45,691 nucleotides of DNA from positions 1-45,691 of IMG/VR virus record IMGVR_UViG_2531839130_000007. The stretch is one strand, 5' to 3'. Positions 2,216-17,549 of this stretch are shown in pieces; the stretch's first letter is position 1; each line of letters opens with the position of its first letter. The translations under genes and the position numbers were made by a program. The stretch comes from a virus. Taxonomy: Duplodnaviria > Heunggongvirae > Uroviricota > Caudoviricetes. The notes beneath the pieces are model-generated. The model did no database searches and was not told the DNA's origin. It saw only the letters and a list, made by a program, of their open reading frames with translations.

Positions 2216-3214
2216 TTACACCTGTGCGACGTTATACCATGTGCCATTGATGTATTTTTGTATTGGTCTGAAGATGGCTTCATCATCGCCATCTACTTCA
2301 CCAATGATTCTTAATCCGGTAATTGCGTGTCCGGCTTTTTCATAACGACCACCACGCGCCATCAATTGAACAACACGCGTACCCAGGCGAACATCTTTCA
2401 CATAACGGGAATCAAAGTTACCGTAATCTGAGGGATTAACACGACCTGTAATATTTATGGTTTTATTACTTTGAATACTGCCGGAGACAAAGCGCATAAC
2501 ATGGACGTTATTAGCATAAACATCCAGATACCCGTCGCCATTTTGTTTAAATCCCGTGTCATTATCACCCAAAACAATCGAGTTACCACCAAGAGCACTG
2601 GATGTTCCGATGCCCAGTGCACCATTCAATTGACCGCCAGATAATGACAACGCCCCAACCTCAGCAGCAGTCGGTTTAATGTGCGAACTGTAAATTACAT
2701 ATACAGTTCCATCTGTCAGGCCTGTTGGTTTATTCGCTGTATAAGTTGGTGATGTATGAATCGTTACACTGGCGTTACTGGTATAATCCCACTGAATATT
2801 AACACCTGTGGCGTAATTACCTATTTCTACATAAATGTCATAGGTATCACCTGATGTATTCACCCATGCAAAATTAGTAAATCCAATCGAGGTCCGTCGC
2901 CATAATGCACCAGTAATACCTTTTGGATTCCCATTTCCGGCACGCAGAACCAGCTCAGAGATGCCTGCTTGATGCGAGGAGCCAACGTTATACCCTGCGC
3001 CACCAATCAGGCTTATGTAAACCACGGAACTGGCTTGTGGCATTGTTACAGTTGCCAGTTTGAACCATCCAGCACCACCACTAAAAGACATGGTTGTTGA
3101 ATTTGTTGTGCCGATATTACGCAGGAATAGTTTTTTATCGGGAATATCTGCACCGTTCTGGTTTTTCTGTAATGCACCAGAAGCCTGATTTACCGTTTCC
3201 TGTAAACCAAGGTT
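2216..3214 (-). CDS. Tail-fibre C-terminal variable cassette, alternative copy (Sv'-like)
   Basis: Frame open from the right crossover site (stop at 3215-3217) to 2216 (first ATG at 3091). Contains ALGIG..ALGGNSI.LGDNDTG.KQNGDG.LDVYAN block shared with the fibre gene at 40501..42012; ends ...INGTWYNVAQV. Confidence 0.65.
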   Translation of the reverse strand, partial: NLGLQETVNQASGALQKNQNGADIPDKKLFLRNIGTTNSTTMSFSGGAGWFKLATVTMPQASSVVYISLIGGAGYNVGSSHQAGISELVLRAGNGNPKGITGALWRRTSIGFTNFAWVNTSGDTYDIYVEIGNYATGVNIQWDYTSNASVTIHTSPTYTANKPTGLTDGTVYVIYSSHIKPTAAEVGALSLSGGQLNGALGIGTSSALGGNSIVLGDNDTGFKQNGDGYLDVYANNVHVMRFVSGSIQSNKTINITGRVNPSDYGNFDSRYVKDVRLGTRVVQLMARGGRYEKAGHAITGLRIIGEVDGDDEAIFRPIQKYINGTWYNVAQV

Positions 3215-3369
3215 TTAGATAATGGCCGTTTCCGGCCTGCATGGCATGATTTGCGCTTTTAAACGGGAGATTCAGCGTGCTGATTGGCTATGTAAGGGTA
3301 TCAACAAATGACCAGAATACAGACCTGCAACGAAACGCTCTTGTTTGTGTAGGATGTGAACAAATATTT
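3139..3369. repeat. Right arm of the inverted repeat; contains the right crossover site and the first ~93 nt of pin
   Basis: Same alignment as the left arm; identity is lost left of 3139. Confidence 0.85.
3197..3222. other. gix/pix/hix-family 26-bp crossover site (right)
   Basis: Reverse complement of the left site, 55 bp upstream of the pin start. Confidence 0.6.
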
Positions 3370-3792
3370 GAAGATAAATTAAGCGGGACAAAGACTGACC
3401 GACCGGGATTAAAACGCGCTTTAAAGCGCCTTCAACAAGGTGACACGCTGGTTGTCTGGAAACTGGATCGCCTCGGGCGAAGCATGAAACATCTGATTTC
3501 TCTCGTCGGAGAACTACGGGAGCGAGGGATTAATTTTCGCAGCCTTACTGACAGTATTGATACGTCATCCCCAATGGGGCGTTTTTTCTCCCACGTTATG
3601 GGTGCCCTGGCTGAAATGGAACGAGAACTAATCATCGAGCGAACAATGGCAGGACTTGCTGCCGCCAGAAATAAAGGCCGTATTGGTGGGCGACCACCTA
3701 AACTAACCAAAGCGGAATGGGAGCAGGCCGGGCGTTTATTAGCACAAGGAATCCCCCGCACTCTGAATCACGGGCCATCAGTTATGCACTGA
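3277..3792 (+). CDS. pin: Serine DNA invertase, Pin/Gin/Hin/Cin family; C-terminal DNA-binding helix appears missing
   Basis: [23 protein letters not shown]...[24 protein letters not shown] matches remembered Pin/Gin nearly residue for residue, then diverges ([10 protein letters not shown]-stop) where the recognition-helix region should follow. GTG start. Confidence 0.8.
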
Positions 3793-4136
3793 AAACCATA
3801 AGGTTACTGTATCCGTCAGTGGAGTGGGTTCAGTCCTTTGCAGACGAACGCTGCGGACGTGCAGGCGTTGTGTATCAGGCGTCGAATTTTGATTTTATTG
3901 GCAGTCATGAAAGCACGTTCTACGAGCTGGATGGTGAGTGGTATCACGAGATAACGATGAACGCAATTAAACGCGGTGGACAACGAGGCGTGTATTTACG
4001 GGCTAATAAAGAGCGTGCCGCAGTGCACAAATTTAATCAGTATCGCTGCATCAGATTCCTGAACAAGCGAGCAAGGAAGCGGCTAAATACTAAACTATTC
4101 AGGGCTCAGCCATACCCCAAAAGCAGTTCGGATTAG
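3717..4136 (+). pseudogene. ORF fused downstream of the truncated invertase; possibly the C-terminal remnant of a Mom-like gene
   Basis: Overlaps the pin 3' end in another frame with no convincing start. Mom assignment rests on Mu gene order (G segment, gin, com, mom) and a weak recollection of the family; not verified. Confidence 0.25.
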
Positions 4137-4225: not shown

Positions 4226-4672
4226 ATGAAAAAAGCAAAATTGCTAATCAGTGCCATCATCGGCTTATTTGTACTAACCGCCCCTTCAGTCAGTCATGCT
4301 CAAGAAAAAGATTTTGATCCTGAAGTTGCAGCTGATGCAATCTTAAGGTCGGCAGGGATAGATCCAGATAAGAATATTGTCAATAAAGCTCCTGCCTCTG
4401 GTTTTTGGGCCTGCCACGGTATTCGTCTGCATATGGGTGTTGATATGGGGTCATGGACTGATCTTGATACTGGTGAACTATACACTCAGACAGAAACAGG
4501 CCAGATTGATGAGCAAGACAAGGATGAAAAGATTAAAGGGACTGATTATCTATATGCTTCAACCAGAAACCCTGCGGTTGTAAAGTATTTTATCGTTGAT
4601 AAATCTGGAAAAAATCTTTATATCCGAGATGATATAAAGTTCTTCAAAACATATAAATGTAAACGAAACTAA
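4226..4672 (+). CDS. Small secreted protein of unknown function (AT-rich cargo gene)
   Basis: 148 aa with typical signal peptide MKKAKLLISAIIGLFVLTAPSVSHA; locus is visibly AT-richer than its flanks, with its own AT-rich upstream region and a downstream hairpin. Confidence 0.6.
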   Translation: MKKAKLLISAIIGLFVLTAPSVSHAQEKDFDPEVAADAILRSAGIDPDKNIVNKAPASGFWACHGIRLHMGVDMGSWTDLDTGELYTQTETGQIDEQDKDEKIKGTDYLYASTRNPAVVKYFIVDKSGKNLYIRDDIKFFKTYKCKRN

Positions 4673-15044: not shown

Positions 15045-15334
15045 TGGTGGATTTACGTAAAGCGGCGCGGGGGCAGATGTGCACCGTCAGAATTCCTGGC
15101 TACTGCAATCACAATCCCGAAACTTCTGTGCTGGCGCATTACAGGCTGGCGGGGACGTGTGGAACAGCGACAAAACCACACGATATGCAGGGGGCAATTG
15201 CCTGTAGCTCATGCCACGATTTAATCGACGGGCGGGTAAAAACCAGCGATTACACCAAAGAAGAATTGCGCCTGATGCATGCAGAAGGTGTTTTTCGCAC
15301 ACAAGAAATCTGGAGAAAGGAAGGTTATTTATGA
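15044..15334 (+). CDS. Small Cys/His-rich protein (YbcO/DUF1364-like putative nuclease)
   Basis: 96 aa with CxxxxxxxC...HxxxxxC...CxxCH pattern; sits just upstream of the presumed late regulator. Confidence 0.45.
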   Translation: MVDLRKAARGQMCTVRIPGYCNHNPETSVLAHYRLAGTCGTATKPHDMQGAIACSSCHDLIDGRVKTSDYTKEELRLMHAEGVFRTQEIWRKEGYL

Positions 15335-15873
15335 TTTACCCAACAAATACAGGAAAAAGCGGGGAACACCTTCGTCTCACCACGCTGGAAAGAGTCTGGA
15401 TTCAGGGAAAACTGCGCATGTGGGGGCGCTGGTCGTATATTGGCGGCGGTAAGATGGGAAATATGTTCAACCAGTTGCTGACCTCTAAAAAGCTGACAAA
15501 AACGGCAATTAACGAGGCGCTCCGGAGGATGAAAAAAGCAGGTCTGGACAAACCTGAACTTGAGGCTTTTTTGCGGGATATGATCAACGGTAAGCAAAAA
15601 AGCTGGCTGGTGCATTGTAATGATGCAGAGGCGTTATGCATTGATCGTGTGATTAGTGAAGTACTGGCAGAACACCCAGGATTGATTTTTATCCTCCGAC
15701 AAAGATATGAAGGGCGGGGGATGAGTAAGCTGAAAATGGCACAACAGTTAAATAAGTATCGCCCTGGCTGGAGCTTGAAAACTTGCAGAAATCGCATTGA
15801 TGCATGGTTGGGTGTTGCTGAACACATTCTGTATATACCAATGAAATTAGCGTTATGCGGAGAAAGCCAATAA
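15331..15873 (+). CDS. Putative late-gene antiterminator (Q-position protein)
   Basis: 180 aa from ATG 15331 (AGGAAGG upstream). Assigned by position only (last gene before promoter-like region, tRNAs and lysis cassette); no recognisable Q zinc-finger. Confidence 0.35.
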   Translation: MIYPTNTGKSGEHLRLTTLERVWIQGKLRMWGRWSYIGGGKMGNMFNQLLTSKKLTKTAINEALRRMKKAGLDKPELEAFLRDMINGKQKSWLVHCNDAEALCIDRVISEVLAEHPGLIFILRQRYEGRGMSKLKMAQQLNKYRPGWSLKTCRNRIDAWLGVAEHILYIPMKLALCGESQ

Positions 15874-15968
15874 AAAAGTTATTGCATTTTTGCCAATAAA
15901 CTGCTTCAATTTTGCTACGCTTCGCAAAGCTGTATCGCGAGGCGAATCAAGCGCATGAACTTTACCAG

Positions 15969-15997
15969 AACCCGCCATTGAGCGGGTTTTGTTGTTT
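15969..15997. terminator. Intrinsic terminator downstream of the Q-position gene
   Basis: Stem cccgc/gcggg with loop cattga, then ttttgttgttt. Confidence 0.55.
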
Positions 15998-16129
15998 CTA
16001 TGGTGTGATATAAGAAACGACATTTAATAATTGCCTTCAAAATAAATTTGTTTATATATTGTTGTGTATGTTTTAAGTGAAAGTTAAATGTTTGCATAAA
16101 ATAAAAACACATAAATAAATTTACATAAC

Positions 16130-16165
16130 TTGACGTAAAGTGTTGTTGCGATTGGAATATTAAAT
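16130..16165 (+). promoter_or_regulatory. Candidate late promoter (PR'-like) in AT-rich region
   Basis: TTGACG at 16130-16135 followed by AT-rich -10-like hexamers (gaatat/taaat) at plausible spacing; assignment is weak. Confidence 0.25.
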
Positions 16166-16243
16166 CGTATCATCGAAAACGGTTCTGAGGGGGGGGGAGG
16201 AACTCTTCTTTGCTCGGTGATATCGCTCCCCTGAAGAACCAAT

Positions 16244-16319
<76 letters not shown>

Positions 16320-16322
16320 TAT

Positions 16323-16397
<75 letters not shown>

Positions 16398-16763
16398 GCA
16401 TTTGAAACAAGCCTTATTGTATTGCGGCACTGGCGTATTTTTTATTACGTGGGGGCAGGTTGTTTTGAAAAAGCATTCTGTTCTCTGGCTATGATTTGAG
16501 GCCAGGTGTAGCCTCAGTGCTGATTTTTTTACGACAGCAGAATGGTGCATTATCGGTGGAGATTTTGTATTTCCTGGCAGGGTAGGTGATGCATCATTCT
16601 GGTGTTGTAAATCGCACCAAAGAGGCGCACCTCAGTGCGAGGGTGGTTTAAAGAGTCGGTTTAGCGGGAAACCACAGTATCCATACAGCACGGAATACTT
16701 CGGGAGACACCCGACGCCTCGGTTTAATAACAATTAAAAAAAATCATCCCTTGCATTGACCAA

Positions 16764-16788
16764 CCGCCATATCTGGCGGTTTTTTTTA
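16764..16788. terminator. Intrinsic terminator in the tRNA-to-lysis intergenic region
   Basis: Stem ccgcca/tggcgg with loop tatc, then T8. Confidence 0.6.
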
Positions 16789-17114
16789 TTCCTTTCTCAG
16801 GACGAAAAAAGACACGAGCATCCAGGAATACTCGTGGGACAACGTCCTTTGGATAGCAATTTGCGAGAGGGTGAAAAGTAGCGCGGTCGTCGGATTAAGA
16901 CCGCGGGACAAAGTCCATGAAGAATAATAAGTATTGGCCCCCTTCCGGGGACATGTTCATACTACCAAGATTCAGAAGTGGTTTAAATCCTCAAATTAAC
17001 CTTAATTTCCGATAAGTCTTATTTCATTTCTTTGCGCCACATCTGGAGCTCATCAAATAACGCCACGCAAAGGGCGTCTGCGGATGCCGGTGCTTTTGAC
17101 GGGGTGTTTTTTAC

Positions 17115-17137
17115 GGGCCGCTGGTGGCCCTTTTTTT
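17115..17137. terminator. Intrinsic terminator immediately upstream of the lysis cassette
   Basis: Stem gggcc/ggccc with loop gctggt, then T7; 20 nt before the holin-like start. Confidence 0.6.
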
Positions 17138-17156
17138 ATTTACAGGAGAAAAAAGT

Positions 17157-17549
17157 ATGTCTGAACCCTTATCCGGTTCCGGCACGGCTGCGGCGCTCGG
17201 CGGGGCGACGGTGTACGGGCTGTTTACCGGGACGGATTTCGGGATTGTGTTTGGTGCGTTCGCCGGGGCGTTATTTGTGGCAACGATGCCGCAGGCGCTT
17301 TCAGCCTGGCGTGTGGCGGCGCATTTTCTGGTGTCGTTCATTATCGGCGTGCTGGGGGCAGAGGTTCTGGCGTCCTGGCTGGTAAAGCATACAGGGTTTG
17401 ACGGTGCACCTGTCGACGCACTGTGTGCAGTGCTGGTGTCAGTGGTGTCGGTGAAGATTCTGTCGTTCATCCACCAGCAGGATATTGCATCACTGGTGTC
17501 CGGTGTGTTCTCCCGCCTGCGGGGCGGAGGAGGCGGCAATGTTAAGTAA
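17157..17549 (+). CDS. Putative holin (multi-pass small membrane protein)
   Basis: Start at ATG 17157 (AGGAGAAAAAAGT upstream); ~130 aa with 3-4 hydrophobic helices; first gene of the lysis cassette. Confidence 0.45.
   Translation: MSEPLSGSGTAAALGGATVYGLFTGTDFGIVFGAFAGALFVATMPQALSAWRVAAHFLVSFIIGVLGAEVLASWLVKHTGFDGAPVDALCAVLVSVVSVKILSFIHQQDIASLVSGVFSRLRGGGGGNVK

Follow-up and report, generated by a model that had tools for sequence, protein, structure and literature searches.

Between the 3' end of a tRNA-Gly(tcc) gene (16397) and the ATG of a holin gene (17157), a virus of the Caudoviricetes (IMG/VR record IMGVR_UViG_2531839130_000007; the window is the whole stretch of 45,691 nucleotides that was analyzed) contains a non-coding stretch with exact bounds, 16398-17156. 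In lambdoid phages, the slot between the antiterminator gene Q and the lysis genes carries Shiga toxin, other cargo and host-rewiring regulatory small RNAs (sRNAs). The best explanation of 16398-17156 is that it is non-coding cargo in this late-operon 'moron' slot of a lambdoid prophage. Judged from sequence and its comparison among relatives, the cargo before the lysis genes probably consists of a plus-strand array of structured RNAs, denoted as modules A, H and J, a convergent sRNA gene on the minus strand, and tandem terminators. Modules A and J and the minus-strand RNA are the three predicted elements with compensatory-change support, and the long hairpin H accompanies them. While the layout is of the known convergent-sRNA kind, the predicted RNA families are new; A, H, J and the minus-strand RNA are all absent from Rfam 15 and from the searched literature.

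The stretch is free of coding constraint. The longest open reading frame (ORF) touching 16398-17156 is 54 aa, and single-base indels are spread over the entire stretch among 39 unique full-length homologues (80-99% identity), so that it does not hold a conserved coding sequence. This agrees with a preliminary description of the same DNA, which had seen no convincing ORF here. In phage vB_EcoS-683R6, the minus strand is annotated with hypothetical proteins; these were rejected, as their reading frames are not open in this window.

The slot is conserved. Among complete E. coli genomes, 378 of 5426 (~7%) had homologues at 80-99% identity, which are hardly ever annotated. GenBank phage records with the slot sequence were two, SerU-LTIIb (two copies) and vB_EcoS-683R6, and no others appeared when 50,697 phage records were searched with the core by distant blastn. 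Pattern scans of IMG/VR added ~130 prophage loci to the homologue set (given here as L numbers), of which L066 is identical to the window sequence, and one genome-contig scan with an exact 19-mer gave matches in Escherichia ruysiae only. When the slot was compared across related prophages, the hairpins proved to be conserved, as the preliminary description had anticipated for a region producing small RNAs; folds that covary are found on both strands, and the plus-strand set is tied to tRNA-Gly, which is consistent with that proposal.

Structured modules on the plus strand

Recurrent blastn breakpoints split the stretch into module A (16398-16530), module H (to 16614), module J plus terminator T2 (to 16790), module C/D (16792-17050) and module E (17051-17136). 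The A-H-J array itself occupies 16423-16790 on the plus strand, where J is followed by an AU-rich linker and T2. Folding of the alignment gave -180 kcal/mol for the plus strand and -120 kcal/mol for the minus strand. The modules are exchanged among prophages and recombine independently of the holin type. In loci with a lambda-S-type holin, homology ends at 17136, just past the T-run of terminator T4, and different holin cassettes are swapped in directly 3' of T4. A leader of the lysis genes, which had been suggested as an alternative to small RNAs, is thus not supported for most of the region, considering this independent recombination, the swap point after T4, and the occurrence of J far from holins.

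Module A (16423-16530) is a cloverleaf-shaped four-way junction with a closing helix of 7-8 bp (16425-16432 with 16515-16522) and three hairpins, A1 (16433-16450), A2 (16451-16485) and A3 (16487-16513), and the U7 after it (16524-16530) forms a terminator-like element, T1. The segment 16420-16531 folds with -42.2 kcal/mol on the plus strand (z -4.7) and -19.3 kcal/mol on the minus strand. Divergent A variants that share little hairpin sequence self-fold into the same architecture, and every variant retains the closing helix and 6-8 U. In a covariance-model alignment, 18 of the 39 pairs of A were changed on both sides; none of 500 shuffles reached this, and slid controls gave at most 9 pairs.

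Module H (16528-16614) is a long, irregular, G-U-rich hairpin of ~32 bp, with a stem (16528-16557 with 16582-16611), an apical hairpin (16558-16563 with 16569-16574) and a conserved bulge, UGGCAGGG. Its folding energy was -41.0 kcal/mol with a z of -8.7 on the plus strand and -20.1 kcal/mol on the minus strand. Over 41 variants, the 34 pairs of H were paired in more than 99% of cases and two were changed on both sides. Substitutions often exchange G-U for A-U or G-C, one-sided changes pass through G-U, and nine of the 34 pairs are G-U in the majority of sequences. When H and J were taken together, G-U made up 14.7% of pair cells, and pairing fell from 98.9% to 84.5% when the sequences were read on the other strand. 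Based on these G-U pairs and the drop in pairing, H is a plus-strand RNA structure, not a DNA palindrome. The combined covariation of H and J comprised 66 pairs with seven changed on both sides (37 cells), and the number of pairs was reached by 4 of 500 shuffles and the number of cells by none of 500. Furthermore, H is linked to one tRNA: it lies 141-164 nt 3' of tRNA-Gly(UCC) in 88 of 89 evaluable loci, all recovered via the H loop sequence, and the tRNAs preceding tRNA-Gly(UCC)-H vary (Thr; Met-Lys-Thr; Met-Lys-Lys; Met-Arg-Lys; Arg).

Module J (16621-16721) is a five-helix junction composed of P1 (16621-16627 with 16715-16721, 7 bp), P2 (16630-16633 with 16639-16642), P3 (16643-16649 with 16669-16675), P4 (16676-16699) and P5 (16700-16704 with 16710-16714), and an AU-rich variable linker follows it (16722-16761). 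In the set obtained after a second pattern scan, the minimum-energy fold was the five-helix topology or a close variant for all 32 non-empty unique J sequences, which come from diverse prophages. In alignment A6, 12 of 28 pairs were changed on both sides (65 cells), including six of seven in P3; no shuffle out of 500 reached this count, and slid controls gave at most 4 pairs. The plus strand was assigned to J from wobble changes in P1 and P3 and from its context. With its conserved helices and variable linker, the comparison points to J acting as a protein-binding or shape-dependent RNA more than as a base-pairing seed.

J also appears outside the setting seen in the window. In the L100 group, it abuts an AT-rich promoter-like region, similar to that upstream of the tRNAs here, which comes after Q, a PR'-like segment and a terminator; in L118, it lies 15 nt 3' of a tRNA; and in L103, L110 and L114, it stands behind other long hairpins. 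The L103-type unit had no match in the 5426 E. coli genomes or in phage records, and its absence from all of these genomes indicates that the J family reaches beyond E. coli. A tie between J and one type of Q was rejected, as a DUF1133-type Q lies upstream in 48 loci and not in 26. In some loci, J is replaced by a shorter module, J', with the same terminator type at its end. J' (~100 nt) follows H in L050 (~4226-4330), L036, L025, L032 and L067. Its sequence CCUGGAAAUACA matches the complement of UGUAUUUCCUGG, a conserved apical sequence of H, at 11 of 12 positions; this complementarity could reflect a long-range or kissing contact. In L021 (2064-2440) and L008 (~2513-2800), a second and more divergent A-H-J-T2 unit precedes the AT-rich tRNA promoter and is not itself preceded by a tRNA. 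In these second copies, the long stem of H is kept by compensatory changes, and the apical part is wholly different.

A candidate convergent small-RNA gene on the minus strand

The putative minus-strand sRNA gene runs convergent to the A-H-J array and spans ~16803-16987 with its terminator (candidate core, 16873-16987). A candidate -35 element, TTTAAA (16982-16987), is separated by a 17-nt spacer from a candidate -10 element, TAGTAT (16959-16964; TAATAT in variants), which would place the start near 16952. Features of this strand were compared across 33-45 variants, and the promoter hexamers were unchanged in 33, including one whose surroundings had diverged. The predicted RNA begins with the hairpin SL1 (16937-16952), which has a GGAA-type loop, a stem changed on both sides, and a U-G wobble that can form on the minus strand only. 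Its other features are a near-invariant single-stranded stretch, AUACUUAUU.UUCUUCA, the small hairpin SL2 (16906-16916) and the covarying hairpin SL3 (16882-16905; CGCGGNN...NNCCGCG). In a consensus scan, an intrinsic terminator was found at 16803-16836, with the stem CACGAGUAUUCCUGGAUGCUCGUG (16836-16813) and then UCUUUUUU.

The segment 16800-16925 folds with -36.3 kcal/mol on the minus strand, where z is -4.06 versus -2.25 on the plus strand. In alignment A7, the 17 pairs of the minus-strand RNA were paired at 96.6%, and five were changed on both sides, which was not reached in any of 500 shuffles. Structure in the region, where the preliminary description had mentioned further hairpins, far exceeds what chance predicts (z -4.7 for A and -8.7 for H on the plus strand, and -4.1 for 16800-16925 on the minus strand). 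In 2/3 alleles, SL3 is directly followed by U7 and would be the terminator there. Considering that this U-run is weak in the window and that the next terminator is at 16836-16803, the RNA in the window probably runs on to 16803. In a second allele, the terminator stem differs (CACGGACA...UGUCCGUG), yet a hairpin and U-run are kept on the minus strand. The minus-strand terminator and T2 face each other at a distance of 13 nt. The module was present in 369 of the 5426 E. coli genomes, and, as compact variants lack the whole module, it behaves as an independently inserted unit. The predicted features of the minus-strand RNA resemble those of a classical base-pairing sRNA, and the conserved single-stranded stretch is likely its base-pairing seed.

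Terminators, candidate promoters and the probable control of lysis

In the surrounding 2.4 kb, a consensus scan found 11 terminator-like sites, compared with 2.6 +/- 1.4 in shuffles. T2 has its stem at 16762-16781 and T8 at 16782-16789 (consensus scan), and in all variants, including those with J', the stem is conserved and the loop is variable. Compact variants carry an extra terminator, T2b, after T2. T3 is a nested hairpin found by folding (17059-17106, followed by T6 at 17107-17112), and variants such as L028 have a long hairpin here that is cleaner and runs into T8. T4 (17115-17137; consensus scan) has a GGGCC...GGCCC stem (17115-17130) and then T7. A GC hairpin followed by a U-run, as expected of an intrinsic terminator, is seen in T2, T4 and the minus-strand terminator, and T3 and T1 are less canonical. 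The two clean terminators of the preliminary description, 16762-16781 with T8 and 17115-17130 with T7, were recovered as T2 and T4, and it is T4 that had been placed 20 nt before the holin start; its end is indeed 20 nt 5' of the ATG. T3/T4 is the most widespread module (q654-763) and invariably stands directly before the holin ribosome-binding site, which is AGGAG at 17144-17148 by sequence.

Upstream of the slot, a DUF1367 gene, a YbcO gene and the Q-type antiterminator gene (15331-15873; Pfam DUF1133 / Phage_antitermQ) are followed by a terminator-like hairpin (15966-15991), AT-rich DNA and the tRNAs. Directly after Q, the plus-strand segment 15882-15921 is presumably the late promoter PR', with TTGCAT (15882-15887) as the -35, a 17-nt spacer and TTCAAT (15905-15910) as the -10, and a -10-like TACGCT (15916-15921) may be a sigma-dependent pause element. 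This PR'-like segment is nearly invariant in loci with differing flanks and recurs before another terminator in the L100 group. A tR'-like intrinsic terminator (15966-15999, plus strand; 10-bp stem with six GC pairs and a T-rich tail) lies ~50-80 nt 3' of PR' and is conserved in the alignment, and the candidate PR'-tR' unit is predicted to give a short constitutive RNA of ~80 nt (15916-15999). A second plus-strand region, 16100-16173, has an UP-element-like AT tract and candidate hexamers (TTGACG, 16130-16135; TTGCGA, 16146-16151, with a 16-nt spacer to TATCAT, 16168-16173) and would drive the tRNA operon. The scan hit there had 9 of 12 matches, and the hexamers were invariant or nearly so in 17 unique variants. 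As a side observation, a G-run in the predicted tRNA leader (16189-16200) is 6-7 G longer than in related loci. The operon comprises tRNA-Thr(tgt) (16244-16319) and tRNA-Gly(tcc) (16323-16397), both on the plus strand and found by ARAGORN and by the Rfam tRNA model (73.8 and 65.6 bits for the two). At the 3' side of the slot, the Pfam matches are two holins and an M15 endolysin; the start codon of the first holin is at 17157-17159 on the plus strand (Phage_holin_8, E 7.7e-22).

Based on this arrangement, we propose that in the lysogen the tRNA promoter would drive tRNA-Thr, tRNA-Gly and A-H-J together, with transcription of the array stopping either at T2 or earlier, at the U-run that follows A. 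This would yield stable, folded RNAs acting in trans in the lysogen, with J at the center of a larger family of prophage RNAs and able to stand alone behind its own promoter. The minus-strand RNA would be made from its own promoter and end at its own terminator. T2, T3 and T4 would shield the lethal lysis genes from transcription by the constitutive promoter, and such a terminator series would provide a rationale for a strong constitutive promoter less than 1 kb upstream of these genes. After induction, Q-modified polymerase from PR' would read through all terminators to the holin and endolysin genes. Lysis gene expression by readthrough, as the preliminary description had implied, fits the Q gene, the PR'-like segment and the tR'-like terminator upstream and the four plus-strand terminator-like elements before the holin; it is standard rather than new, since readthrough by Q-modified polymerase is the ordinary lambdoid late-gene mechanism. 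If expressed, the RNAs would be new players in prophage-host regulation and a tangible example of a phage tRNA operon with structured RNAs built into it.

Alternative readings and related systems

Several points weigh against the reading of the slot as RNA cargo. The alignment used for A was fitted to its covariance model, and J folds equally well on both strands in the window. Part of the homologue set was gathered by exact patterns from the H loop and the J helix P5, so that the conservation of these two sites is ascertainment-biased. The segment 16925-17050 has no significant structure on either strand. Promoter-like sites in the scan were not above chance (3 found versus 3.6 expected), the minus-strand promoter scores just 8/12 in this window, and promoters, RNA ends, co-transcription, processing, stability, abundance and any trans function are all matters that we infer from the DNA. 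Lastly, a 32-codon plus-strand ORF (MKNNKYWPPSGDMFILPRFRSGLNPQINLNFR, 16917-17015) that overlaps the minus-strand RNA gene is open and of equal length in ~70% of loci. That this part of the region codes for a small protein is quite improbable to us, even though the intact frames include variants ~20% apart in DNA: a frameshift or a stop disrupts the frame in ~28% of loci, most differences in 16917-17015 alter the amino acid, and no Shine-Dalgarno sequence lies at the usual distance from 16917. Furthermore, the same DNA carries the conserved minus-strand promoter, minus-only G-U pairing, the GGAA loop and compensatory stem changes.

A purely cis-acting insulator or leader, which would stop transcription before the lysis genes, perhaps shape the late mRNA and have no trans role, would account for four plus-strand terminator-like elements in 740 nt and the fifth, T2b, in compact variants, for T3/T4 being the most widely shared module and always directly before the holin, and for the promoter-like region with its UP-like AT tract upstream. 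We consider it unlikely, because terminators need a short GC hairpin and a U-run, which leaves the 39-pair junction, the ~32-bp hairpin and the five-helix junction with their compensatory changes unexplained; J is also found 5' of the tRNA promoter, among other settings, and a minus-strand promoter and terminator would be useless for insulation of the plus strand. A and J share a cloverleaf topology with a 7-bp closing helix (three hairpins in A and four in J), although the resemblance is one of shape only. In another reading, they would be decaying tRNA genes of a formerly longer array, or the stretch a remnant of lost cargo, in either case drifting and functionless. The spacing of J is tRNA-like (7-bp closing helix, 2 nt, 4-bp helix, 1 nt, and a last helix abutting the closing strand), and related loci have 1-4 extra tRNAs upstream, some with tRNA fragments in the slot. 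However, ARAGORN with default or relaxed settings found only the two true plus-strand tRNAs, and the Rfam tRNA model matched nothing within 16398-17160 when E was allowed up to 10, so A and J were rejected as tRNAs. Neutral decay would break helices, whereas 92-99% of pair cells are still paired, with many pairs changed on both sides, and 7% of E. coli genomes, as well as prophages outside E. coli, retain the element at 80-99% identity. Decay is therefore very improbable. Recombination breakpoints recurring at module borders might suggest inverted repeats that work as DNA, as protein-binding or recombination sites. This seems scarcely credible, as a DNA cruciform, or the opposite strand, would have A-C mismatches in place of the nine of 34 H pairs that are mostly G-U, one-sided changes consistently go via G-U intermediates, and U-runs come after the stems.

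A farther-reaching proposal is doubtful in our judgment. According to it, A-H-J would be a new phage RNA class, with tRNA-shaped domains in a tRNA operon that serve as decoys for tRNA-recognizing factors or as protein-binding RNAs, not as base-pairing sRNAs, and, as a joint part of the same tentative proposal, J would represent a widespread five-helix family of enterobacterial prophages. The targets of such decoys might be host anticodon nucleases, processing enzymes and modification enzymes.

Among known systems, the RNA-cargo reading has its nearest parallel in lambdoid prophages of enterohemorrhagic E. coli (EHEC), where convergent sRNA pairs, AgvB, AsxR and other EcOnc RNAs, occupy the PR' moron slot (Tree et al. 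2014, PMC4104026). The slot is the same, 3' of Q/PR' and 5' of the lysis genes, and here too it would contain two opposed non-coding units with facing terminators and one RNA antisense to the late transcript (PMC4104026). While the EHEC sRNAs are 51-60 nt (PMC4104026), the minus-strand RNA here would be ~80-150 nt and the plus unit is a multi-domain array of ~370 nt joined to tRNAs. AgvB (RF02702) and AsxR (RF02703), which have a conserved 3' region of ~42 nt, had no match on either strand at E up to 10. Likewise, PasA, PasC and PasD1 of enteropathogenic E. coli (EPEC) prophages adjoin the holin/lysozyme operon, often near tRNA genes, and the predicted sRNA genes of the slot resemble those of the Pas sRNAs (PasA, PasC, PasD) and STnc100 in being intergenic, in ending at intrinsic terminators and in belonging to lambdoid prophages (PMC8550237; bioRxiv 10.64898/2026.05.13.724894). 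Homology to Pas was rejected, as blastn with word size 7 against four E2348/69 pas loci (L003-L006) gave a best E of 0.067 over 18 nt.

Rfam 15 scans, of 2.4 kb at E up to 1 and of the region itself at E up to 10, returned the two tRNAs alone, so that the covariance-model search brought no catalogued family besides tRNAs in favor of the small RNAs first suggested. No Rfam cis-regulatory family matched in the region, which covers the known riboswitch and attenuator leaders. All other matches were far below threshold: H was matched by miRNA-type hairpins and the terminator by STnc240, STnc100, STnc560 and isrK. STnc100 reached 14 bits against a 47-bit threshold, over the terminator only. The model of STnc560, a Salmonella Hfq-binding RNA, gave a weak full-length alignment at 16658-16859 on the plus strand (15.7 bits versus a threshold of 55, E 0.92), which is probably due to chance. 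The sequence strings of the elements, spelled as DNA or as RNA and for either strand, were not found in the searched literature nor in the supplements of Tree et al. 2014.

Non-coding RNAs are also known next to tRNAs. The 3' external transcribed spacer 3'ETS-leuZ of E. coli is reportedly an sRNA sponge of ~50 nt with a single terminator hairpin. Like such 3'ETS trailers, which processing releases from the tRNA transcript, A directly follows the CCA of the last tRNA and closes with a helix and U-run (16398-16530), and unlike 3'ETS-leuZ, it is a 100-nt four-way junction with two further domains after it. GOLLD and ROOL, which are large and ornate, and the stable 'species 1 and 2' RNAs of the phage T4 tRNA cluster are structured non-coding RNAs beside phage tRNA genes and presumably co-transcribed with them. 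From this general background, the prophage A-H-J resembles GOLLD/ROOL and the T4 RNAs in adjoining tRNA genes, and differs from GOLLD/ROOL in being ~370 nt and modular, with parts exchanged independently; the Rfam models of GOLLD and ROOL had no match in the Rfam 15 scans. PR' is described as constitutively active, with its transcript terminated in lysogens (PMC7547250). The window resembles the systems of lambda 6S RNA and StxS of Stx phages in having a promoter-like segment after Q and then a terminator, with the late genes reached by antitermination only, and differs from 6S/StxS in that the PR'-tR' unit is upstream of the slot, which lies beyond tR', a second promoter-like region and tRNAs (PMC7547250).

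Some related loci show further rearrangements in the slot. In SerU-LTIIb (KU052038, L001), an LT-IIb toxin phage, the tRNA/non-coding/holin block is duplicated (1122-2424 and 3028-4127); copy 1 ends in a truncated holin region, and copy 2 has a diverged A and lacks the C/D module. L014, L085, L101, L111, L114 and L127 carry a conserved gene for a ~141-aa protein (MFGIFKKKTRKAI...) between the RNA modules and the holin, 3' of T2 or of the C/D module. This may be the TerB-like protein given beside PasA and PasC in the Pas preprint (bioRxiv 10.64898/2026.05.13.724894). In L086 and L040, a sequence resembling a tRNA 3' half (GGTTCGAGTCC...GGTCCA) lies within the slot ~330 nt 3' of T2, which suggests past tRNA-gene rearrangements in the slot.

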